Of a stretch of 64,000 nucleotides of DNA, positions 22,294 to 56,436 are shown one piece after another. The notes beneath the pieces were generated by a model. It was not told the DNA's origin and ran no database searches. It saw only the letters and a program-made list of their open reading frames with translations. Origin of the DNA: an uncultured Pseudomonadota bacterium. GTDB taxonomy: Bacteria > Oederibacteriota > Muellerivitia > Muellerivitales > Muellerivitaceae. Numbering within the stretch: position 1 is the first letter of the stretch; each line of letters begins with the position of its first letter. The stretch lies in assembly GCA_963836235.1 (NCBI GenBank), contig CAWIIP010000002.1, positions 224,001 through 288,000 on the forward strand, in the 5' to 3' direction. The position numbers were made by a program, and so were the translations under genes.

Positions 22294-22378
22294 TGGTGCG
22301 AGGGGGGGGAGTTGAACCCCCACGGGTTACCCCGCCAGAACCTAAATCTGGTGCGTCTGCCAGTTTCGCCACCCTCGC
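22294..22378 (-). tRNA. tRNA-Leu (anticodon TAG)
   Basis: GCGAGGGTGGCGAAACTGGCAGACGCACCAGAT-TTAG-GTTCTGG...GGTTCAACTCCCCCCCCTCGCACCA: 85 nt with long variable arm and encoded CCA, in the usual position upstream of tig. Confidence 0.95.
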
Positions 22379-46380: not shown

Positions 46381-47454
46381 ATGACTGAAGCAAAACAAAC
46401 TTTCCCCATGGCGGAAGCCAAAAAAATCGTCGACGACCTCTTCGAGCCCAGCGCGGCCCTCTATTGGGCCGATCTCCTCTTTAACACTATCCTCGGCTGG
46501 GGGGCCTTCGTCTTGGCGGTTTTATCCCCCAACTTTTCAGCCATCCAAATCCTCAGTCTGGCCGTTTCGGTCTTTTGCCTCTACCGGGCGGTGATCTTTA
46601 TTCACGAATTAACCCACCTCAAAAAAGACACTTTCGGCTTGTTCCGGATCGTTTGGAACCTGCTTTGCGGCTTCCCCTTCATGGTCCCCTCCTTCACCTA
46701 TATGGGCGTCCATATCGACCACCATAAACAGAAAATGTATGGCACCCGGGACGACGGCGAATACCTTCCCTTTGTCCTGATGGGCCGCTTTCGGATTATT
46801 CTTTTCTTTTTAACCATGCTGGTCGTTCCCTTTGTCTTTACCCTCCGCTTCCTGCTGACCCCCATTTCTTACCTCATTCCACCCCTCCGCAAGCTCCTTT
46901 GGGAATACCTTTCGTCGCTTTCCATTGACCCCGAATGGGCTCGCCCCGCCCCCCAGGAAAGGGACGGCAAATGGTGGCAATTGCAGGAATGGCTGACCTT
47001 CGGTTATGCCGTGGCTTTTGGCTGGTTGCTGTGGAAAGGAATACTGCCGCTGAAAGTGCTGGTTCTCTGGTACATCGTGGCGACGCTGATCTTATTGACC
47101 AACGGCATTCGAACCGTCGCGGCCACCCATTGTTACCGCAACCCCGCCGACCACATTTTGGAATTTTCGGAGCAGTTTTTGGACTCGGTCACCGTCCCCG
47201 GCAACCCCGTCACTACCGGCCTCTGGGCCCCTGTCGGCCTTCGCTACCACGCCGTCCATCATTTGTTTCCCGGCATGCCCTATCATAACCTGGGGAAAGC
47301 CCATTATCGCTTAATGAAGGAACTGCCGGAGAATTCGATCTATCGTTTGAGCCTGAGGAAAAGCCTTTGGCATGGGCTGTCACAGCTTTGGAGGGAAACG
47401 ACCGCCGCCCAAACGGCCAAGCAGGCGGTTGGAAGAACTTCGAAAGTTTCTTAG
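46381..47454 (+). CDS. Membrane fatty acid desaturase family protein
   Basis: His boxes HELTH, HIDHH and HAVHH with TM segments. Confidence 0.88.
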   Translation: MTEAKQTFPMAEAKKIVDDLFEPSAALYWADLLFNTILGWGAFVLAVLSPNFSAIQILSLAVSVFCLYRAVIFIHELTHLKKDTFGLFRIVWNLLCGFPFMVPSFTYMGVHIDHHKQKMYGTRDDGEYLPFVLMGRFRIILFFLTMLVVPFVFTLRFLLTPISYLIPPLRKLLWEYLSSLSIDPEWARPAPQERDGKWWQLQEWLTFGYAVAFGWLLWKGILPLKVLVLWYIVATLILLTNGIRTVAATHCYRNPADHILEFSEQFLDSVTVPGNPVTTGLWAPVGLRYHAVHHLFPGMPYHNLGKAHYRLMKELPENSIYRLSLRKSLWHGLSQLWRETTAAQTAKQAVGRTSKVS

Positions 47455-47520: not shown

Positions 47521-47757
47521 ATGAAAACAGCTATCTCCATTCCTCATAAGGTTTTTGAAACTGCCGAAAAACTGGCCGAAAAACTGGGTGTTTCCCGAAG
47601 CCAACTCTATGTAACGGCTATTAAAGATTACCTTGATGGCCATATGGATGATTCCGTGACGGCTAAACTCAACGAACTTTATGCCGATACGGATTCTAAG
47701 CTTGGCCCCGCGCTGAGGAAACTTCAGGCAAAGTCTATTTCTAAGGATGGGTGGTGA
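47521..47757 (+). CDS. RHH antitoxin (ChpI/MazE-like)
   Basis: MKTAISIP...AEKLGVSRSQLY ribbon-helix-helix; overlaps the toxin start. Confidence 0.85.
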   Translation: MKTAISIPHKVFETAEKLAEKLGVSRSQLYVTAIKDYLDGHMDDSVTAKLNELYADTDSKLGPALRKLQAKSISKDGW

Positions 47758-48095
47758 ACCGGGGCGAAATTTGGTGGGCGGACCTACCCGGCCCCAAAGC
47801 TTCGGAACCTGGATACAGCCGCCCCGTCCTAATTGTTCAATCAGACGCGTTTAATCGCAGCCGCATTCAAACCATTGTCGCCATCGCTCTTACGTCCAAT
47901 CTCCGATTGGCCGATGCTCCTGGAAATGTGAAACTATCCGCGCGTAAAACGGGTCTTCCAAAAGATTCGGTGGCCAATGTGTCCCAAATCATTACCCTGG
48001 ACAAAACCTTTCTGAGGGACAAATCTGGAAAATTGGACGCGTTAACAATAAACCACATTGAAGATGGAATAAAACTTTTGCTGGATTTGAAATAA
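47751..48095 (+). CDS. PemK/MazF-family toxin
   Basis: RGEIWWADL, EPGYSRPVLIVQSDAFN and GLPKDSVANVSQIITLDK. Confidence 0.92.
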   Translation: MVNRGEIWWADLPGPKASEPGYSRPVLIVQSDAFNRSRIQTIVAIALTSNLRLADAPGNVKLSARKTGLPKDSVANVSQIITLDKTFLRDKSGKLDALTINHIEDGIKLLLDLK

Positions 48096-48142
48096 TTCTT
48101 GAGTAGAACACAGGCGCAGTAATGTGCAGGTCAATCCTTGGC

Positions 48143-48298
48143 TTGTTTCCCGGCATGCCCTATCCCAACCTGGGAAAAGCCCACTATCGTTTGAGCCTGA
48201 GAAAGAGCCTTTGGCATGGTTTGTCGCAACTGTGGAAGGAAACAACTGCTGCCCAAACGGCCAAACAGGCGGTTGGAAGAACTTCAAAGGCTTCTTAA
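48143..48298 (+). pseudogene. Duplicated 3' end of the desaturase gene (matches 47263-47454)
   Basis: Encodes LFPGMPYPNLGKAHYR/LSLRKSLWHGLSQLWKETTAAQTAKQAVGRTSKAS*, with a 36-nt in-frame deletion between two tatcg microhomologies. Confidence 0.92.
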
Positions 48299-48395
48299 AA
48301 TCCTAAATACCTCCCTGTCGTGGACAAAAAAATAATGGTTAATGGTGGCCTGACCCCGTTTTTCACTTTACGGACGATTGCGTAAGTCGTTTGAT

Positions 48396-49192
48396 TCAAG
48401 GCAAAACATTAGTTTTCCTCCAAGTTTGATAAACATCTGATTTCAAGATTGGGATGAATTGAGTATCTTTGTTTAGAACCTCTTGATACTTGGAATCCAA
48501 TTGGATGACTTTTGCGATTTCTCGGACAGCTAATTCCGGTTGATTTTCGGCCCAATAAGCGAGCGTTAAATTGTAATGACCCATTAAATAATCCGGCTTA
48601 ATTCTAACTGATCTTTGTAAGGCTTGAGCCGCTTCATAACCATAAGCTGTTCCCTTTTGCCGTAAATAAGCATAACCCATTAAACCCCACGCCTCATAAT
48701 TCTCGTAATCACATGAAGTGGCCTCCATATATTCTTGGATAGCATTTCTATAATCTTGAACGCGGTAATATTCCTTTCCCTTTTTTAAATGTTTCCAGGT
48801 TTCCGCGAAAGGATTAAGCCATTTGTAATTCCTAACAAAAGCAGGAGTTCCTTCTGAATCGTTCCCTATAATTTCATCAATATCAACATCCTTAAACACA
48901 GGAGGGGTAAAATTTCCATCTTCACTAACATCTTCACCCTTGAAAGCCGGTATTATTTTTCCATTATAAAAAAAATAAAATTCTGACGAACAAGCCCTAG
49001 CAGACAACGCACACCAATGAAGACCAAAAAAAATAGGCCCTCTTTTTTTTATCAAACCAAAATCCATATACGAAGGCCAAATACTCTCAAAAGGAAGTTG
49101 ATCAAGCAATTTTCCATCTTCATCAAAAACCATTAACATTCTTTGACCGGAAATTTCATCCGGGGCCATTAGAAAAATTTCCTTTTTCCCAT
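48396..49192 (-). pseudogene. 5'-truncated AT-rich TPR protein gene, cut by IS21
   Basis: C-terminal TPRs (GKEYYRVQDYRNAIQEY, AWGLMGYAY, GHYNLTLAY). The first ~39 aa of the ORF-track call read out of the IS left end. Confidence 0.7.
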
Positions 49193-49279
49193 TGTAAACG
49201 CCGTTCCAAAACCGTGACGGTCTAGAGGCCCTCTCAGGGCGGTCGAAAAGTGTGACACTCCCCGAAATTACCGGATGAT

Positions 49280-50836
49280 GTGTGTTTTTCAGCGATGAAA
49301 ACCACGCCACCGGAAGGAAAAGGAGTGTACAAAGACATGGACCAATGGACGGAAATCCGCAAGAAAATCCTGGTGGAAGGGGTCTCCAAGCGCCAGGTGA
49401 TGGAAGAAGAAGGCATCCACTGGGAAACCCTCCAGAAAATACTCGCCCATAGCGAGCCTCCCGGCTACCAGATGAGCCAGGAGAGGCCCCAGCCCAAAGT
49501 GGGGCCCTTCTTGGGCCGGATCAAGCAAATCCTAGAAGACGACAAACACACCCACAAAAAGCAACGCCATACCGCCAAGCGCATCTTTGAGCGTCTGCGT
49601 AAAGAGGATGGTTACACGGGTGGGTATACCCAGGTGAAAAAAGCCGTCCGCGGGATCAAGCACAGGAACAGCGAAGTTTTCGTGCCGTTGTCGCACCGGC
49701 CTGGTGAGGCACAGGTGGACTTTGGGCACGCCCTGGTCAAACTCAATGGCGTGCTGGTAAAACGCCCCTACTTTGTGATGGCCTTGCCCTATTTGGATGC
49801 TTTCTTCGTGCAGATATTCGAGCGGGAGAGTACGGAGTTCGTCTGGGAAGGCCACATCCGGGCCTTTGAGTACTTCGGCGGCGTGCCTTCACGGATTAGC
49901 TATGACAACGCCAAAACCCTCGTGAAAAAGCTGATCGGGGTACACCAACGGGAATTGACACGGAGTTTCCAACAGTTGGTAAGCCACTATCTCTTCGACC
50001 ACCACTTCTGCACCGTACGCCGGGGTAACGAAAAGGGTGTGGTGGAAGGCGGGGTGAAGTATGTCCGACTAAATTTCATGGTGCCGGTTCCGCAAGTGGG
50101 ACATTTGGAGGAACTGAACAAAAAATTGGTGGTGAACTGCGATGAGGATTTGGAACGCAAATTGCGCGGCAAAGGGGCAGTCAAAGCCAAGCTTCTTGAA
50201 GAGGACAAAGCCCATTTTCGGCCTTTGCCCGCTACACCTTTTGATGCTTGTCTGAAGCAATCCACGACGGCCACATCCTTGTCCCTGGTTCGCTTCGACA
50301 CCAACGACTATTCCGTGCCATCGGAATGGGCTCACCATCCGGTGGTGGTGAAAGGATACATCGACCGGGTGGATATTTTTTACAAGGCCAGGCGAATTGC
50401 GACCCATGATCGTCTTTGGTGCAAGGAAGGCGTAACCTTCAATCCGGTGCATTATTTGGCGGTTTTGGAGGGAAAGCCTGGGGCACTGGACCATGCCCGG
50501 CCCCTGGAAGATTGGAACCTGCCGGAGAGTTTCACCCTCTTGCGCCGTCGCATGGAAGGAAAGGAAAAGTTTCACGGCGAGGGGACGAGGGAATTCATCA
50601 AGACGTTGCGGCTTTTGGAAAAGAATTCCATGGGCAGGCTCCACCGGGCCGTGAAAAAAGCCGTTCAGATGGAAATTTATACACGCGATGCCGTCGCCCA
50701 GTTGCTCTACTCCAAGGAAGATTTCAGACTGACCACCTTCAGCTTGGCCGGTCGTGAGCATTTGCGGCGGGTTCAGGTGGCCCGGACAGATCTTTTGGCC
50801 TACCGAGAACTGATGGCCGTTGGAGGTGAAGCATGA
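49280..50836 (+). CDS. istA: IS21 transposase IstA
   Basis: HTAKRIFERL, GEAQVDFG, YDNAK and EKGVVEGGV (DDE). The true start is probably 49326 or 49337-region rather than 49280. Confidence 0.93.
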   Translation: MCFSAMKTTPPEGKGVYKDMDQWTEIRKKILVEGVSKRQVMEEEGIHWETLQKILAHSEPPGYQMSQERPQPKVGPFLGRIKQILEDDKHTHKKQRHTAKRIFERLRKEDGYTGGYTQVKKAVRGIKHRNSEVFVPLSHRPGEAQVDFGHALVKLNGVLVKRPYFVMALPYLDAFFVQIFERESTEFVWEGHIRAFEYFGGVPSRISYDNAKTLVKKLIGVHQRELTRSFQQLVSHYLFDHHFCTVRRGNEKGVVEGGVKYVRLNFMVPVPQVGHLEELNKKLVVNCDEDLERKLRGKGAVKAKLLEEDKAHFRPLPATPFDACLKQSTTATSLSLVRFDTNDYSVPSEWAHHPVVVKGYIDRVDIFYKARRIATHDRLWCKEGVTFNPVHYLAVLEGKPGALDHARPLEDWNLPESFTLLRRRMEGKEKFHGEGTREFIKTLRLLEKNSMGRLHRAVKKAVQMEIYTRDAVAQLLYSKEDFRLTTFSLAGREHLRRVQVARTDLLAYRELMAVGGEA

Positions 50837-51606
50837 GCGAAACCAAAAAGACCCTCTTGCTGGAACACCACCTCAAAAAACTCAAGTTGCCTACCATGCA
50901 CCGCGAGTACGACAAGATGGCCCAACTCTGTCGTACTGAACGCAGTGATTATCCGCAGTACCTGTTCAAGCTGGCCGAACTGGAACTTCTTGACCGGGAA
51001 CGCCGGGCCAAGGAGAGGCGTATCCGGGATGCGGGCTTTCCCGTGCTCAAGACATTGGACACGTTCGACTTCAAAGCTCAGCCTTCGATCAACCAGGAAT
51101 TGACGCGGGAACTCATGCGGGGCGAGTACATCGACAAAAAAGAAAACGTCCTGCTGATCGGAAATTCAGGAACAGGTAAAACCCATTTGGCCACGGCCTT
51201 GGCCTTCCAGGCCTGCTGCCAGGGCCGGGCGGTGCGGTTCTTCTCCGTCACCGGCCTTGTGACGGAACTTTTGGAGCGCCGGGAGGAAAAACAATTGGCC
51301 AAGTTCCACCGGCAGTTGGCCAGGCTCCACCTGATCGTCCTGGACGAACTGGGTTACGTACCCTTCACCAAGGCGGGGGCCGAGCTGCTATTCGAGGTGG
51401 TCAGCAAGGCCTATGAGCGTACCAGCCTGATGGTAACCACTAATTTGCCCTTTGAAAATTGGGTGGAAATCATGGGTTCGGAAAGAATGACGGGGGCTCT
51501 TATTGACCGTTTGACCCATCGGGTGCATATTCTGGAGGCCAACGGCCAAAGCTTCAGGCTGGGGGAAGCGAAAAAACGGCTAAGGCGTAAAGACAAGAAG
51601 GATTGA
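50833..51606 (+). CDS. istB: IS21 ATPase helper IstB
   Basis: GNSGTGKTHLA, LDELGY, TTNLPF and LIDRLTHR. Confidence 0.95.
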   Translation: MSETKKTLLLEHHLKKLKLPTMHREYDKMAQLCRTERSDYPQYLFKLAELELLDRERRAKERRIRDAGFPVLKTLDTFDFKAQPSINQELTRELMRGEYIDKKENVLLIGNSGTGKTHLATALAFQACCQGRAVRFFSVTGLVTELLERREEKQLAKFHRQLARLHLIVLDELGYVPFTKAGAELLFEVVSKAYERTSLMVTTNLPFENWVEIMGSERMTGALIDRLTHRVHILEANGQSFRLGEAKKRLRRKDKKD

Positions 51607-51706
51607 AAAGATTAACCAACGACCATACACCCTAAAGGCGTATGGAAGGCGGGGGGTGTCACACTTTTGGACCGCCCACCGTCACACTTTTCGACCGGCG
51701 CGGACA

Positions 51707-51895
51707 TTTTAAGTAGGTCACCTTCTTAGCCCGGTGCTTTCGAACAACTTTGGAGATGACTTCCTGGAAAAAACAAAGGACTACGTAAGGAGTTAACCCC
51801 TTATGCTTCCGATGAGACCGGGAGACATGGGGTTCCAACATAGCTTTCCGCGAGGGGTCGAATTCCAAGATTGGATAACGTTGACGTTTAAGCAT
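51707..51895 (-). pseudogene. 3'-truncated nucleoside phosphorylase-like gene
   Basis: YPILEFDPSRKAMLEP...VVLCFFQEVI resembles the N-terminus of nucleoside phosphorylase family proteins. The frame enters the IS at ...TYLK|C. Confidence 0.6.
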
Positions 51896-51944
51896 TTAAT
51901 GATCCAACCTTTTTAAAATTAATAGAGCCGTTGGAAATAATCTT

Positions 51945-51970
51945 GTCCACGACGGGTCCCCTTCGTGGAC
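51945..51970. other. Small hairpin gtccacga-N10-tcgtggac
   Basis: 8-bp perfect inverted repeat just beyond the last rluD 3' duplicate. Confidence 0.5.
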
Positions 51971-51992
51971 ACCAACTACATTCAAAACCCAA

Positions 51993-52119
51993 CTACTTCA
52001 CCCAAACCAAATCTTTCAACTCGGGCGGATCAATGCCTAGCATCACCAAGCATTCCTCGAAATCCACGGGCGGAAGAACCGTATAGGTCTTCGTGATTCC
52101 CGTCTGGGGTGTTGTTGGA
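51993..52119 (-). pseudogene. Duplicated rluD 3' end, copy C
   Basis: TGITKTYTVLPPVDFEECLVMLGIDPPELKDLVWVK* matches 53529-53655. Confidence 0.93.
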
Positions 52120-52128
52120 GGAAGTAAA

Positions 52129-52338
52129 TTATTTATTCCAGTCGGAAGGATGAATATCGGCTTGCCGGAGAATTTCGCGCAGAAGAGGAATTCCAATATC
52201 ACCCTGATGTGGATTGGGGATGCGGAGTTTTAAGGTGCCTTTCACCATGAACATATGCTTCCCTCCGCTATAGGGACCCTCAAAACCTAGGCGGACCAAA
52301 CCCCGGATCAAATCACGCCGGGAAACGGGTCTAAGCAT
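52129..52338 (-). CDS. hicA: HicA-family toxin
   Basis: LVRLGFEGPYSGGKHMFM...IPNPH...DIGIPLLREILRQA. Confidence 0.88.
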   Translation of the reverse strand: MLRPVSRRDLIRGLVRLGFEGPYSGGKHMFMVKGTLKLRIPNPHQGDIGIPLLREILRQADIHPSDWNK

Positions 52339-52576
52339 GAACTAAATTCGGCAATTTCAAGCGCTTACCCTGGATCACGGGAAGTTTATCACCCTGCCGA
52401 ACTTTTAATAAAACCCACTCTTCCAAGACTTCCTGGAGAACCTTCCGGCAATCCTCCAGCCCTTTTTCATTCGACCAAACACCCTTAAAACCAGGTACTT
52501 CACCGTAATAGGTTTTGTCCTCAAGAATTTTATATTTCGCTTGCCCCATCGCAGTCTGAATATATTCCATAAACAT
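52331..52576 (-). CDS. hicB: HicB-family antitoxin (short)
   Basis: YYGEVPGFKGVWSN...LEDCRKVLQEVLEEW. AAGGAG SD and an extended -10 TGATATAAT upstream. Confidence 0.85.
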   Translation of the reverse strand: MFMEYIQTAMGQAKYKILEDKTYYGEVPGFKGVWSNEKGLEDCRKVLQEVLEEWVLLKVRQGDKLPVIQGKRLKLPNLVHA

Positions 52577-52641
52577 GTTGGGCTCCTTTGTGAGGGCATT
52601 ATATCAAAGCTAATTAAGTTACGAACAATGTTAAAACCCGC

Positions 52642-52768
52642 TTATTTCACCCAAACCAAATCTTTCCACTCCAGCGGGTCAAGCCCCAGCATCACCAGGC
52701 ATTCCTCAAAATCCACGGGAGGAAGAACCGTATAGGTCTTCGTGATTCCCGTCTTGGGGTGTTGGAAA
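52642..52768 (-). pseudogene. Duplicated rluD 3' end, copy B
   Basis: FQHPKTGITKTYTVLPPVDFEECLVMLGLDPLEWKDLVWVK*; 6 mismatches in 127 nt versus 53529-53655. Confidence 0.95.
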
Positions 52769-52816
52769 AATAACCGCACAATCTCACCTTCCCGCCGTAA
52801 ATGACGCAACTCCGAA

Positions 52817-53230
52817 TCAATGCCTTTTTAGAAACAACAAAAATTGCCGGGGATTAACAATTCTAATTTTCCGGAAAGACTTGAGATCAAGCAGATCCTT
52901 GTCGCCTGTAACGATAAAATCGGCCTGACCGGCGACAGCGCATTCCAAAACAGGATTGTCCTTGGGGTCGCGGCTGGCGATAACTTTGATAACGGGGGAA
53001 ACCCATTCAGCATCACTTTTAAGAAGTTCAAGGGTATCCAAGATGTCATGGGGATTGACGAATGCTGAGATTTTGGGTTTCCGGCAAGCGGCATTAAACT
53101 CGGTGACGAGTTCGGGTGAGGTGATTATATCGAAAAGTCCATCCAAAAAAGCCCTGCGAACGGCGAGACAATTTCGGCTTCCAAGAAGAATGCTGATTAA
53201 TACATTGGTGTCAATGACGGCTCTTGCCAC
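52817..53230 (-). CDS. PIN-domain toxin (PIN_3 type)
   Basis: AVIDTNVLIS, RDPKDNPVLECA and IVTGDKDLL. Confidence 0.92.
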   Translation of the reverse strand: MARAVIDTNVLISILLGSRNCLAVRRAFLDGLFDIITSPELVTEFNAACRKPKISAFVNPHDILDTLELLKSDAEWVSPVIKVIASRDPKDNPVLECAVAGQADFIVTGDKDLLDLKSFRKIRIVNPRQFLLFLKRH

Positions 53231-53444
53231 GTAATTCCTTGCGGGTTTCCTTGACCAAAGCCACTATTTCCTTCTCGCTCAAGCGGTTCTTTGTAGTCCT
53301 TTTTTGGATGCGGTTCAGAAGGGGGGTCCAACGTTCTCGCCGGGTCTGCCTTTCGAGCTCGTGGGCCAGCTTGATTTTGTCTTTTACGGAAAGCTGTTGG
53401 ATGAGATTTTCAATATCCACAGGAACTTTGACGGCGAGATTCAT
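53211..53444 (-). CDS. Putative antitoxin partner of the PIN toxin
   Basis: MNLAVKV... with GGAGG SD; overlaps the PIN start. TTGGAT-N17-TACAAT promoter lies between it and the rluD stop. Confidence 0.7.
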   Translation of the reverse strand: MNLAVKVPVDIENLIQQLSVKDKIKLAHELERQTRRERWTPLLNRIQKRTTKNRLSEKEIVALVKETRKELRGKSRH

Positions 53445-53528
53445 GGATGGCTCCTCCCTTTTACCTTTGCATGTTCTGATTGTAGTCCAATTTGATCCAT
53501 TATCCAATTCACTATTAAGAAAGGGGTA

Positions 53529-54524
53529 TTACTTCACCCAAACCAAATCTTTCCACTCGGGCGGGTCAATGCCCAGCATCACCAGGCATTCCTCAAAATC
53601 CACGGGGGGAAGAACCGTATAGGTCTTCGTGATTCCCGTCTTGGGGTGTTGGAAAGAGAGCCGGAAGGCGTGAAGCATCTGGCGGGGGGCCAAATCGGAA
53701 CCGCCCCCATAAACCGCATCCCCTAAAATGGGATGGTGGATGTATTGCATATGGACGCGGATTTGGTGGGTGCGGCCCGTTTCCAGTTTTAGATGAAGCA
53801 GGCTGGCCTTTTCCGCCTTACCCAGAACCGCGAAATGAGTGACCGCGATTTTCCCGCCCTCGGGTAACACCGCCATTCTTTTGCGGGAGACGAAATGCCG
53901 GCCCAGAGGGGCGTTGACTACCCCAGGCCCTTCCACTTCCCCCTTAACAATCCCTAAATATTCCCGGCTTAGTTTGCGGTATCTCAATTGCTTTACCAGA
54001 CTTTTGTAAGCCGCGTCGGTCTTGGCCACCACGAGAAGCCCCGAAGTATCCTTATCCAGCCTGTGCACCAGCCCCGGCCTTTGAACCCCTCCGACCCCCG
54101 CGATATCCGGGCAATGGGCCATGAGGGCATTGATGAGTGTCTTATCCGGATTCCCCGCGCCGGGATGCACCACCATCCCCACCGGTTTGTTGATCACCAA
54201 AAGAGAGGCGTCCTCAAAGACGATATCCAATTTGATGTCTTGGGCTTTTATATCGGACTTTTTAGAGGGTGGAATGTTGACTTGAAAGGTTTGGCCTTCC
54301 AAAACAATCAAGGAGACTTTTAAGGCCTTCACCGGAAATTGGGGGATGACATGGCCTTCTTTGATGAGAACTTGGGCTTGGTTGCGGGAAAAGGCTTTCA
54401 ACTGGGCAGAGAGGAAAACATCCAGGCGCTTGCCCCCCTCGCCAGGTTGGACGGTAATGAGGGCGGTTTGGGCGGTGGTGGAAGAGGGTTTCATGGAAGG
54501 CATTTTACTTGGAATCGACGGCAA
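53529..54524 (-). CDS. rluD: RluA/RluD-family 23S rRNA pseudouridine synthase
   Basis: S4-like N-terminus, NKPVGMVVHP, HRLDKDTSG and TGRTHQIRVH. Follows lspA/lgt. Start may be 54503. Confidence 0.9.
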   Translation of the reverse strand: MPSIPSKMPSMKPSSTTAQTALITVQPGEGGKRLDVFLSAQLKAFSRNQAQVLIKEGHVIPQFPVKALKVSLIVLEGQTFQVNIPPSKKSDIKAQDIKLDIVFEDASLLVINKPVGMVVHPGAGNPDKTLINALMAHCPDIAGVGGVQRPGLVHRLDKDTSGLLVVAKTDAAYKSLVKQLRYRKLSREYLGIVKGEVEGPGVVNAPLGRHFVSRKRMAVLPEGGKIAVTHFAVLGKAEKASLLHLKLETGRTHQIRVHMQYIHHPILGDAVYGGGSDLAPRQMLHAFRLSFQHPKTGITKTYTVLPPVDFEECLVMLGIDPPEWKDLVWVK

Positions 54525-54547
54525 AACCCAAAAGAAAGAGGGTTTGA

Positions 54548-54648
54548 ACCACCAAGGGCACCAAGTTCACCAAGAACGACGAACATCTAAGATTTTAAAA
54601 TTCTCAAAAGTCTTTTGCTTTCTTGGTGCCCTTGGTGAACTTGGTGGT
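54548..54648. repeat. REP-like imperfect inverted repeat with (caccaagNN)x3 arms
   Basis: accaccaagggcaccaagttcaccaagaa ... ttcttggtgcccttggtgaacttggtggt. Confidence 0.8.
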
Positions 54649-54661
54649 GAAAAAGGTTTTG

Positions 54662-55465: not shown

Positions 55466-55954
55466 TTAAACCCTTTCCCAAGATTGCTTTGGTTTCGCGA
55501 AAAAATAGCCCAACAATAAAAGAGTCAAGCCGACCGTGATACAGGAATCCGCCAAATTGAAAATGTAGGGAAACCATTGGTGCTGGTGGAAACGAACGTC
55601 GATAAAGTCCACGACTTTCCGGTAAAAGACCCTATCAATGAAGTTACCCATCGCCCCGCCCCAAATCAACCCCAGGGAGAGCCGTTGAAGCACTTTCTCG
55701 GAAGGAACGAACCTTTGATAGGCGTAAACAATCAAGCCCGCCCCGCAGGTGATGGCGATAAAAAAGGGAATCCGGACATAGGCGGGGGTATTGGCCATGA
55801 ACCCGAAAGCCGCGCCGGGGTTTTGGATGTAAGTCAAATAAAGATAATCCCGGATGACCATGATCGAATCCCCCATCCGGCAATAGTGCATGACAAGGAA
55901 CTTCGAGATTTGGTCGGAAAGAACCGCCAGTAATGAAACTCTTCGAATGATCAT
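55466..55954 (-). CDS. lspA: Lipoprotein signal peptidase II (copy 2)
   Basis: DQISK, NPGAAFG, GGAMGNFIDR, VVDFI and FNLAD. Confidence 0.92.
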   Translation of the reverse strand: MIIRRVSLLAVLSDQISKFLVMHYCRMGDSIMVIRDYLYLTYIQNPGAAFGFMANTPAYVRIPFFIAITCGAGLIVYAYQRFVPSEKVLQRLSLGLIWGGAMGNFIDRVFYRKVVDFIDVRFHQHQWFPYIFNLADSCITVGLTLLLLGYFFAKPKQSWERV

Positions 55955-56436
55955 GCCCGGGTCTTCTGCCGGTGACCCGCGATAAACTCAAAGAGAAGAT
56001 AGGCGAGCCCCACGGTAATGCAGGCATCCGCCACATTGAAGATATAAGGGAACCATTCGTATTCGTAATAACGCATTTCAATGAAATCGACGACTTTGCC
56101 ATATAAAAGCCGGTCCACCATGTTTCCCAAGGCGCCTCCCCATACCAAACCGAGCGCGATGCGGGTTAGAAGCCTCTCATGGGCCAAGAGCTTTTGGTAC
56201 ATATAAACGATGAAGGTGGCCGCCAGGGTGGCCGCGATAAAAAAGGGAATGCGCACAAAGGGTTCCAAATTGGACATGAAACCAAAGGCGGTTCCGGGAT
56301 TTTGGATATAGGTGAAATATACGAAATCGGGTAAGAGGGGAACGGACTCGTTCAGGGACATTCGGTTTAAAACGAGGAACTTGGTGGCCTGGTCCAAGGC
56401 CAATACCAGCATGGAGATACCCGCCAGCGGCATCAA
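55951..56436 (-). CDS. lspA: Lipoprotein signal peptidase II (copy 1)
   Basis: DQATK, NPGTAFG, GGALGNMVDR, VVDFI and FNVAD. Confidence 0.92.
   Translation of the reverse strand: MMPLAGISMLVLALDQATKFLVLNRMSLNESVPLLPDFVYFTYIQNPGTAFGFMSNLEPFVRIPFFIAATLAATFIVYMYQKLLAHERLLTRIALGLVWGGALGNMVDRLLYGKVVDFIEMRYYEYEWFPYIFNVADACITVGLAYLLFEFIAGHRQKTRA

Follow-up and report, generated by a model that had tools for sequence, protein, structure and literature searches.

How the 3' end of a housekeeping gene came to stand three times in a row, with a different toxin-antitoxin (TA) cassette between each copy and the next, is the question raised by a locus of an uncultured bacterium (GenBank assembly GCA_963836235.1, contig CAWIIP010000002.1). 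The stretch of DNA analysed, positions 224,001 to 288,000 of the forward strand, is 64,000 nucleotides long and is referred to as the window. The gene concerned encodes an RluD-like pseudouridine synthase and is called rluD here. In our judgement the chances are about even that the locus is a recombination scar, left by sequential displacement through one-sided homologous plus illegitimate recombination, and not the work of a cassette machine.

A repeat search found three direct copies of the rluD 3' end on the minus strand, tail A belonging to the intact gene and tails B and C lying downstream of it (Table 1). The repeated unit of ~130 nt corresponds to the last 42 codons of the gene. The copies are spaced by 649 and 887 nt, and every one of them reaches through the stop codon. 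Along the minus strand the order is rluD with tail A, an antitoxin-like open reading frame (ORF), the PIN_3 gene, tail B, a hicB-like gene, hicA and tail C. With the tail as query, the organism's own 3.97-Mb genome yielded three matches with E values of 1.9e-65, 2.1e-53 and 5.5e-48. Because the next best match in the genome reached an E value of only 0.47, the triplication is far beyond chance expectation. The protein encoded by the intact gene scored 295.6 bits with the NCBIfam model TIGR00005 (cut-off 192.7); its best equivalog was RluD with 264 bits, which is below the cut-off of 351 for that model.

Within a 127-nt core, tail B differs from tail A at 6 nt, which amount to three synonymous codons and the replacements I319L and P322L. 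Two extra changes, one synonymous at L289 and one giving S290F, lie at its 5' edge. Tail C differs from tail A by five synonymous codons, W324L and a TAG instead of a TAA stop codon, and its 5' edge shows a 1-nt deletion beside a 3-nt insertion. Pairwise identities between the copies are 89-95%, with 93% for B versus A; for C versus B the value is 79% if the alignment is left ungapped. The differences are spread along the repeat, and the alignment revealed no invariant core set apart from flanking arms. Beyond the stop codon, tails B and C agree at ~15 of 21 nt, up to the point where a 30-nt palindrome (tail C) or the Hic cassette (tail B) begins. The description given by a first-pass annotation of this DNA was confirmed in these respects: repeat search, alignment and codon comparison reproduced its nucleotide and codon differences between the three copies around the PIN and HicAB cassettes, and the stack of self-promoted cassettes divided by housekeeping-gene tails, each running to the stop codon, is real. 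It had also placed the beginnings of B and C near the same point. The two starts are indeed close to each other, but they do not fall on the same base: homology to rluD begins at nt ~862 of 996 for B and at nt ~866-874 for C, so that the start points are ~4-12 nt apart. For annotation purposes, the in-frame ORFs of 55 and 69 amino acids that coincide with tails B and C count as gene-end fossils and not as genes.

Table 1. Features of the rluD-desaturase region, in window coordinates
Feature	Coordinates	Strand	Basis
Fatty-acid desaturase gene, intact, convergent with rluD; functional tail 47263-47454	46381..47454	+	PF00487
Third cassette: RHH antitoxin (47521-47757) and PemK/MazF toxin (47751-48095)	47521..48095	+	PF02452, E 3.6e-25; RHH_1 weak
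Group II intron 3'-terminus fragment, 50 nt	48101..48150	-	94-98% identity to intron ends in G010 and G045
Displaced desaturase 3' end, 156 nt, in frame to TAA, 36-nt internal deletion	48143..48298	+	Repeat and codon comparison
Half-palindrome remnant beside the displaced desaturase tail	48310..48327	.	Palindrome comparison
TPR-containing ORF, probable C-terminal part of a gene split by an insertion sequence	48396..49310	-	Pfam TPR_11 and TPR_16, weak
IS21-family insertion sequence; istA 49280-50836, istB 50833-51606; ends approximate	49240..51700	+	Pfam Mu-transpos_C_2/rve, IstB_IS21
N-terminal piece of the gene apparently interrupted by the IS21-family element	51659..51895	-	ORF list; no Pfam family; interruption judged from position
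Intact 30-nt palindrome, ~22 nt past the stop of tail C, probably original intergenic spacer	51943..51972	.	Motif search
Tail C, second displaced rluD 3' end, 5'-edge indel, W>L, TAG stop	51993..52127	-	Repeat search, alignment, codon comparison
HicA toxin	52129..52338	-	PF07927, E 3.9e-10
HicB-like antitoxin (UPF0150)	52331..52576	-	PF21748, E 5.4e-29
Extended -10 element (TGATATAAT) of the Hic cassette	52598..52606	-	Sequence only
Tail B, displaced rluD 3' end including stop	52642..52776	-	Repeat search, alignment, codon comparison; 93% to A
Spacer from PIN stop to tail B: degenerate remnant of the 30-nt palindrome, then putative illegitimate joint	52777..52816	-	Alignment with G001 and G045
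PIN_3 (VapC-like) toxin gene	52817..53230	-	PF13470, E 9.3e-21, full profile; TIGR00305, 76.7 bits (cut-off 29)
77-aa antitoxin-like ORF of the PIN cassette	53211..53444	-	Position, overlap with PIN gene; weak VapB15-family match
Promoter-like site of the PIN cassette, TTGGAT-N17-TACAAT	53479..53507	-	Sequence; 22 nt past rluD stop
RluD-like (RluA-family) 23S rRNA pseudouridine synthase gene, intact; last 135 nt (53529-53663) = tail A	53529..54494	-	Pfam PseudoU_synth_2 and S4

The content of the cassettes was assessed with Pfam and NCBIfam models. PIN_3, HicA_toxin, UPF0150 and PemK_toxin all exceeded their Pfam cut-offs, and each toxin gene has an adjacent small partner gene; the cassettes are predicted type II TA modules of VapBC-like, HicAB and MazEF-like type. 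For the 77-aa partner of the PIN toxin, no Pfam family passed its cut-off (sub-threshold E3_UFM1_ligase, 16.7 bits versus 23.2), and a VapB15-family score of 30 bits against a cut-off of 80 marks it as weakly VapB-like. TA genes were the only genes recognized by Pfam in the rluD cassettes. No Rfam family was found at E <= 1 between 47300 and 53800, and the sole Rfam match of the whole window was a tRNA at 22297-22378. The first-pass annotation gave each cassette a promoter of its own. Both elements are present in the sequence, and a consensus promoter scan listed the PIN site, shifted by one base (TGGATA-N16-TACAAT, 53506-53479). However, the scan did not list the extended -10 element of the Hic cassette.

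Related genomes were searched for the same cassettes. The block of promoter, antitoxin and PIN gene (53523 to 52819), which includes the promoter-like site, was 90.8% identical over 708 nt in genome G045, a member of another genus. A second match, with 77% identity over 721 nt, is located on another contig of G001, which represents the only other species of the genus. Both PIN loci lie away from rluD, and the block is bounded by the palindrome in both; in the alignment, G001 and G045 carry it at the homologous position past the PIN stop codon. The Hic block was 80% identical in G021 and 78% identical in G015, with homology running from the TGATATAAT element to the hicA stop codon. The MazEF-like block, located on the desaturase side of the locus, had 83% nucleotide identity in both G043 and G012. 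RluD protein identity to the genera that hold these cassettes is 58-71%. On these comparisons the cassettes are independent, horizontally moving units. The regions downstream of rluD in related genomes were surveyed, as the first-pass annotation had proposed: in 0 of 20 related species did the 1-8 kb behind rluD contain another copy of its tail.

G001, whose RluD is 89% identical in amino acid sequence, provided the empty site. There, 47 nt separate the stop codons of rluD and a convergent gene for a 357-aa fatty-acid desaturase. In the window the same gap measures ~6.07 kb, i.e. that much DNA was added. Tails A, B and C each align to the single G001 tail at 83-85% identity. The insert is flanked by direct repeats of >30 bp, of which one copy is present at the G001 empty site, and its cassettes contain no mobility gene. 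The addition is symmetric in that both convergent genes have a displaced copy of their tail behind a co-oriented TA cassette. From tail C to the copy of the desaturase tail, the middle segment has the look of the two convergent gene ends in their original pairing, cut off from their genes by the cassettes. Between these ends, an IS21-family element with inverted copies of a GTGTGAC-containing motif at both ends appears to have split a TPR-containing gene. The split gene (48396-51895) is flanked by the palindrome on one side and a half-palindrome on the other, as if it were a single palindrome-bounded cassette of the original spacer.

One of the joints could be read at the nucleotide level. A fragment of a group II intron lies between the mazF stop codon and the desaturase tail copy. 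It matches the ends of a multicopy element in G010 and G045 at 94-98% identity and fits the 3' end of the group II intron of its own genome (RVT_1 and GIIM domains; Rfam matches RF00029 and RF02003) less well, with 29 nt at 93%. Fragment and tail copy meet in an 8-nt microhomology, TTGTTTCC (48143-48150). The desaturase-side joint is thus an illegitimate one of microhomology type, on DNA that looks imported.

The recurrence of the arrangement was investigated by a tiled comparison of the genome with itself, in which direct repeats of 60-320 nt with >=80% identity and a distance of 0.3-4 kb were collected. This yielded 52 local repeat pairs, 21 with both copies inside long ORFs and 31 of other kind. 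Fifteen loci were inspected by hand, and in each of them a short insert was found between the working gene end and a diverged copy of it. Duplicated tails include those of a peptidase S9 gene, a DinB-family gene, a radical-SAM gene and an 855-aa gene, and duplicated 5' heads include those of an aminotransferase, a UvrD-like helicase, a 566-aa gene and a HAD-like gene. Repeat identities at these other loci range from 81 to 95%. Families of TA type, from Pfam or NCBIfam, were present in 10 of the 15 inserts (PemK plus RHH twice, PIN plus antitoxin three times, HicAB, a CopG-type antitoxin, YafQ, Fic and an AbiEii-like gene); the remaining five hold genes without a family or a candidate RND-type transporter, as read from the sequence. 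The arrangement of gene end, cassette and diverged end copy is not specific to rluD and occurs at at least ten more loci of the genome. Among the relatives, diverged repeats of 55-135 nt flank 4 of 29 TA loci (1.5-kb flanks), and one further repeat pair in G012 brackets a HicAB module next to a MazEF homologue, which brings the number of loci in other genera to five. At G012:C7 (L092, locus 381-2129) the arrangement is stacked: behind the tail of a dehydrogenase-like gene lies HicAB on the opposite strand, and next come a 212-nt tail copy (95%) and a MazEF cassette that is 83% identical to that of the window. Elsewhere in the organism's own genome, at C2:344121-349340, a candidate comM/YifB-like gene, recognized by eye, is split by a 3.6-kb insert with a 61-nt direct repeat (88.5%); this insert holds a second DprA-family gene.

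The origin of the copies was addressed by codon comparison of 12 pairs of working end and displaced copy. In total, 107 synonymous and 41 non-synonymous codon differences were counted, i.e. 72% of 148 were synonymous. Under in-situ duplication followed by decay of one copy, 33-42% would be expected, and the observed excess then has a P value of 8e-23 to 1e-13. Ratios of synonymous to non-synonymous differences were 4:3 for rluD A/B, 5:1 for rluD A/C, 13:2 for the desaturase, 10:1 for the peptidase, 2:3 for the 566-aa head, 23:4 for the aminotransferase head, 2:7 for the 855-aa tail (g855), 16:2 for DinB, 10:3 for the helicase head, 1:8 for a 181-aa ORF whose frame is doubtful (g181), 7:0 for radical SAM and 14:7 for the HAD head. 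Outgroup polarity was examined at three loci with G001 as outgroup. For the aminotransferase head, 9 synonymous and 1 non-synonymous changes fell on the functional branch and the same numbers on the displaced branch; for the desaturase tail, the two branches had ratios of 4:1 and 6:1. Because the branches are symmetric and biased towards synonymous changes, the two copies at each of these loci must have been working gene ends in different lineages until recently. In G001, which is 80% complete, orthologues of the peptidase and DinB genes were not found, and the helicase gave too weak a match, which left the head uncovered.

Sequential displacement is the simplest account of the observations, with DNA coming from a relative in which a cassette lies right behind, or right before, the gene concerned. 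A sequence of events that would lead to the observed anatomy can be outlined as follows. Originally, rluD and the desaturase gene would have converged on a short spacer, as in G001, which in the present lineage may also have held the 30-nt palindrome and one cassette-like gene. DNA of a close relative, in which a TA cassette from promoter to stop codon was located directly behind one of the two genes, would then have entered three times. The gene body would serve as homologous anchor for a RecA crossover, while the cassette end, which lacks a homologue in the recipient, would be joined illegitimately via microhomology to resident DNA ~130-190 nt before the resident stop codon. The gene would stay intact because the incoming fragment supplies a complete gene end, and the resident end would be pushed downstream as a fossil. 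Two such rounds would have taken place at rluD, HicAB first and PIN second, and one at the desaturase gene, with MazEF. The predominance of TA cargo could in turn be explained if addiction modules penalize their loss through recombination between the flanking repeats, so that inserts of this kind persist. We infer the combination of anchor and illegitimate joint, the order of the events and the identity of the imported copy.

A comparable process has been proposed for other arrays. Kirchberger et al. (2017; PMC5361080), in the parts of their report cited here, describe stacked immunity genes of the Vibrio type VI secretion system (T6SS) as the result of sequential displacement, propose homology-facilitated illegitimate recombination and connect it with the orphaned 3' ends that lie in strings at Rhs and contact-dependent inhibition (CDI) loci. 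As far as those parts go, the locus in the window, read as a displacement scar, resembles the Rhs, CDI and Vibrio cholerae T6SS arrays in its conserved upstream anchor, in 3' ends that arrive together with cargo, in older ends that are stacked downstream, in the likely route and in the lack of an integrase. A further likeness, seen at the aminotransferase head and the desaturase tail, is that the copies stem from different lineages and not from duplication; on this point rluD itself is ambiguous. In contrast, the displaced ends described there are toxin tips and the cargo consists of immunity genes, for which immunity selection explains retention, whereas here the hosts are housekeeping genes, the displaced ends have no evident use and the cargo is autonomous, self-promoted TA genes.

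Several observations weigh against sequential displacement. When the tails are polarized with G001, private changes number 0-1 in tail A, their ratio is 1:3 in B and 4:3 in C, and the synonymous excess at rluD is just 9 of 13 (P 0.01-0.05). The rluD locus alone is non-discriminating, as in-situ decay of duplicates gives similar counts; it fits a near-identical donor followed by local decay and a true local duplication equally well. Two of the 12 pairs, g855 and the doubtful g181, show no synonymous bias. Microhomology is documented at a single joint. The starts of B and C within ~4-12 nt of each other, for which the chance is estimated at ~10-15%, would fit a preferred site too. A donor-type genome, with a cassette right behind rluD and no duplicate, was found in 0 of 20 relatives and gave 0 matches in metagenomes, which were scanned with a degenerate 32-nt tail pattern; an RluD search of genome contigs yielded only G001-like and distant relatives. 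The competence signal is weak: ComEC and DprA are present, but 10-11 of 14 control genomes gave matches as well. For its contiguity the array depends on the assembly and one bridging short contig from a check of public reads, which covered the contigs of four runs (Logan; short pieces only) and in which the best public run shared 0.15 of words. None of these pieces spanned the array, and no circle junction was observed among them, suitable reads not being available. Finally, the corresponding process is reported as rare in experiments in the cited parts of the study on Vibrio (PMC5361080).

The closest competitor of sequential displacement is an entry of pre-formed units by homology only, either as a circle of gene end plus cassette through a single Campbell-type RecA crossover in the tail or as a linear tail-cassette-tail molecule through a double crossover, with its two tail copies as homology arms. 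After a first duplication such a unit would spread and stack without any illegitimate joint. This route explains the near-coincident 5' boundaries of B and C, better than displacement does, and it explains the orthologue-type, mostly synonymous differences between copies; 127-nt repeats with 93-95% identity would be plausible RecA substrates. It leaves unexplained why two cassettes as unlike as PIN and Hic sit within identical boundaries. Moreover, the displaced aminotransferase head is found upstream of the native intergenic region, where it marks the edge of a 2.7-kb insert, and a single crossover within the head cannot produce this layout. A search of the genome for Ku gave 0 matches, which leaves no obvious enzyme for circularization by end joining. 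Taken as the origin of the array, the homology-only route is unlikely in our view.

A related notion, which we regard as conceivable but rather doubtful, is that the combination of gene end, cassette and gene end constitutes a self-sufficient mobile element, in which gene ends act as portable homology arms and no recombinase is needed. If so, the unit would insert into any relative that carries the gene, and addiction modules (TA and restriction-modification) would dominate as cargo because they alone punish repeat-mediated deletion. The family would then possess a RecA-driven cassette system in parallel to its palindrome-bounded arrays, and portable arms would be a general answer to the spread of chromosomal TA genes without mobility genes.

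Accretion by site-specific recombination would require integrase-less elements with a copy of the rluD 3' end as attachment (att) site, inserted by a tyrosine or serine recombinase acting in trans, each insertion displacing the prior tail. Tandem accretion at gene 3' ends is known for integrative elements and for integrase-less cis-mobilizable elements (CIMEs), e.g. ICESt1/ICESt3 at fda and e14 at icd. The locus shares with CIME accretion the direct repeats of a gene 3' end, the restored gene and the tandem stacking, and repeats with similar starting points that end at the stop codon are the classical signature of elements that target gene 3' ends and restore the gene. Unlike the present locus, those elements need a site-specific integrase and a defined core, neither of which was found here. 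The first-pass annotation had suggested a search for a tyrosine or serine recombinase co-occurring with such arrays. No recombinase gene was detected in the window with PF00589, and the eight tyrosine recombinases of the genome are all located elsewhere (C2:509098, C1:328990, C5:272844, C4:245282, C2:1374385, C2:1186149, C4:196578 and C2:929772). Seven of them have ~370-386 amino acids and one has 432, a complement that would suit a factor acting in trans. Several pairs are 64-79% identical in nucleotide sequence over their regions, and they are likely island integrases, one of which seems by eye to adjoin a tRNA-like stretch. A 12-nt stretch at the tail boundary matches a palindrome half-site at 10 of 12 positions, a likeness noted by eye and post hoc; a shared junction motif was not found.

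Five results argue against both a fixed crossover site, as suggested in the first-pass annotation, with a dedicated recombinase and an integron-like system that uses the rluD tail as repeat. More than ten other genes share this footprint, at 5' heads and at tails, each with a repeat of its own, so that many specificities would be needed; no recombinase is encoded in the window; the cassettes occur elsewhere without an rluD tail; the supposed att site is occupied, and the tail duplicated, in 0 of 20 relatives; and the boundaries of B and C differ. The lack of an invariant core and the microhomology with an intron fragment at the desaturase-side joint also speak against site-specific accretion, and we consider it quite unlikely.

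An integron origin was examined separately and rejected, since no IntI was found in the genome itself or in the family genomes. The integron integrase model TIGR02249 gave 0 matches over cut-off in the own genome, with a best score of 40.9 bits versus 265, and 0 of 31 family genomes had a match at E <= 1e-30, a search in which the positive control gave no match either. None of the rluD cassettes has attC-type boundaries; behind the PIN gene there is only a degenerate remnant of the palindrome, and the Hic genes have none on either side. The locus is similar to integron arrays and clusters of attC sites lacking integron integrases (CALINs) in the promoter-proximal stacking of small cassettes, among which TA genes are common, but it differs from them in having no attC site and no integron integrase and in using a coding gene end as repeat.

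In-situ insertion with long target duplication would assume that a staggered break duplicates ~130 nt and that the copies diverge in place; in a variant for the other loci, the functional gene was perhaps later replaced by a foreign allele via homologous recombination. A precedent is provided by Furuta, Abe and Kobayashi (2010; PMC2853133), whose report, in the portions drawn on here, describes how restriction-modification genes were inserted together with a long target duplication. The repeats measure 46-423 bp and in many cases extend over a start or stop codon, so that the gene is left intact. These cases were mostly found in naturally competent species, and the authors suggest DNA breakage by the enzyme. 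Measured against those portions, the loci described here are alike in having small inserts without mobility genes, repeats of >30 bp, a single copy at the empty site and addiction-type cargo, and the three-way counts at rluD fit a slow functional copy with faster decaying ones. The repeats reported there are near-identical (e.g. 417 of 423) and less similar to the empty site, whereas the copies described here share 79-95% identity and differ in an orthologue-like manner, the toxins are RNases and inserts occur in stacks. The idea of DNA breakage is inapplicable to RNase toxins. Together with the pooled synonymous fraction, far above that expected for a decaying copy, and the symmetric, synonymous-biased branches of aminotransferase head and desaturase tail, this makes long target duplication improbable.

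An assembly artefact, in which haplotypes of co-occurring strains were concatenated, might be suspected in a metagenome-type assembly with copy differences resembling strain or species divergence and with no spanning reads obtained, but it can practically be discounted, as a public short contig (run X1, maybe the source sample; 52433-52694, 0 mismatches) bridges the junction of tail B and hic, the joints link a cassette end to a gene interior with no shared sequence for an overlap assembler, a like architecture is present in five other assemblies of other genera, and the assembly consists of 5 contigs with 99.4% completeness and 0.14% contamination.

Two further candidates were tried and rejected. 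A retro-copy of mRNA 3' ends by the intron reverse transcriptase does not agree with cassette homology that includes promoters, with the duplication of 5' heads or with the orthologue-like nature of the copies. A palindrome-mediated origin of the tail duplicates was dismissed on the grounds that the palindrome lies within 100 nt of 1 of the 15 duplicated loci.

The palindrome itself defines a second kind of array. It is a near-perfect 30-nt palindrome, TTGTCCACGACGGGGACCCGTCGTGGACAA, with 11-nt arms around an 8-nt asymmetric centre. Its 26-nt core gave 50 matches in the genome with <=2 mismatches, counted on both strands, so that a near-perfect site counts twice. The palindromes form same-orientation arrays with a spacing of 0.3-2.9 kb, in which each unit consists of one or two small genes of the same orientation and closes with a palindrome (e.g. 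C2:1192120-1205541, C4:135627-146642, C4:854528-860206 and C1:370995-382859). The motif is family-specific, being present in 19 of 27 family genomes and in 0 of 18 other genomes of the phylum; a reversed control gave 0. By their layout these seem to be cassette arrays of an integron-like or dif-module-like kind, built on an unrecognised site of their own, and they are candidates for a recombinase-driven system. Compared with the available accounts of dif modules on Acinetobacter plasmids, they share short modules, often with TA genes, and sites of ~28-30 bp with two inverted arms and a short centre, but differ from these accounts in being chromosomal, in having all sites in one orientation and in their sequence.

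How chromosomal TA genes move, mostly without a transposase, an integrase or a recognizable site, is an open issue in the field. In a literature search on TA genes combined with target duplication and insertion, no TA cassettes inserted in this way were apparent from title or abstract among the matches listed, and a search on TA genes, direct repeats and 3'-end duplication likewise returned no such case among the matches listed. Acquisition of the displacement type is known; we regard its form here, in which TA cassettes are carried at housekeeping gene ends, stacked, and frequent in the genome and the family, as a new variant. More than ten natural footprints are now available in which a TA cassette, from promoter to stop codon, lies between a working gene end and its fossil copy. 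They suggest a testable route for TA genes through one-sided homologous recombination with DNA of relatives and retention through addictive cargo. The loci extend the long-repeat insertions of restriction-modification genes and the displaced toxin tips to housekeeping genes and RNase-type toxins, and they weaken the published view that the DNA breakage has to come from the inserted genes. Their value for the question of TA spread without mobility genes lies more in the set of loci than in any single one.

Two minor features were noted upstream of rluD. The intergenic region between lgt and rluD contains a 34-nt inverted repeat (54543-54653) with 82% complementarity and 43 nt between the arms. 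Between ileS and lgt, two tandem paralogous genes of 162 and 161 amino acids (55466-56436) are candidates for signal peptidase II.

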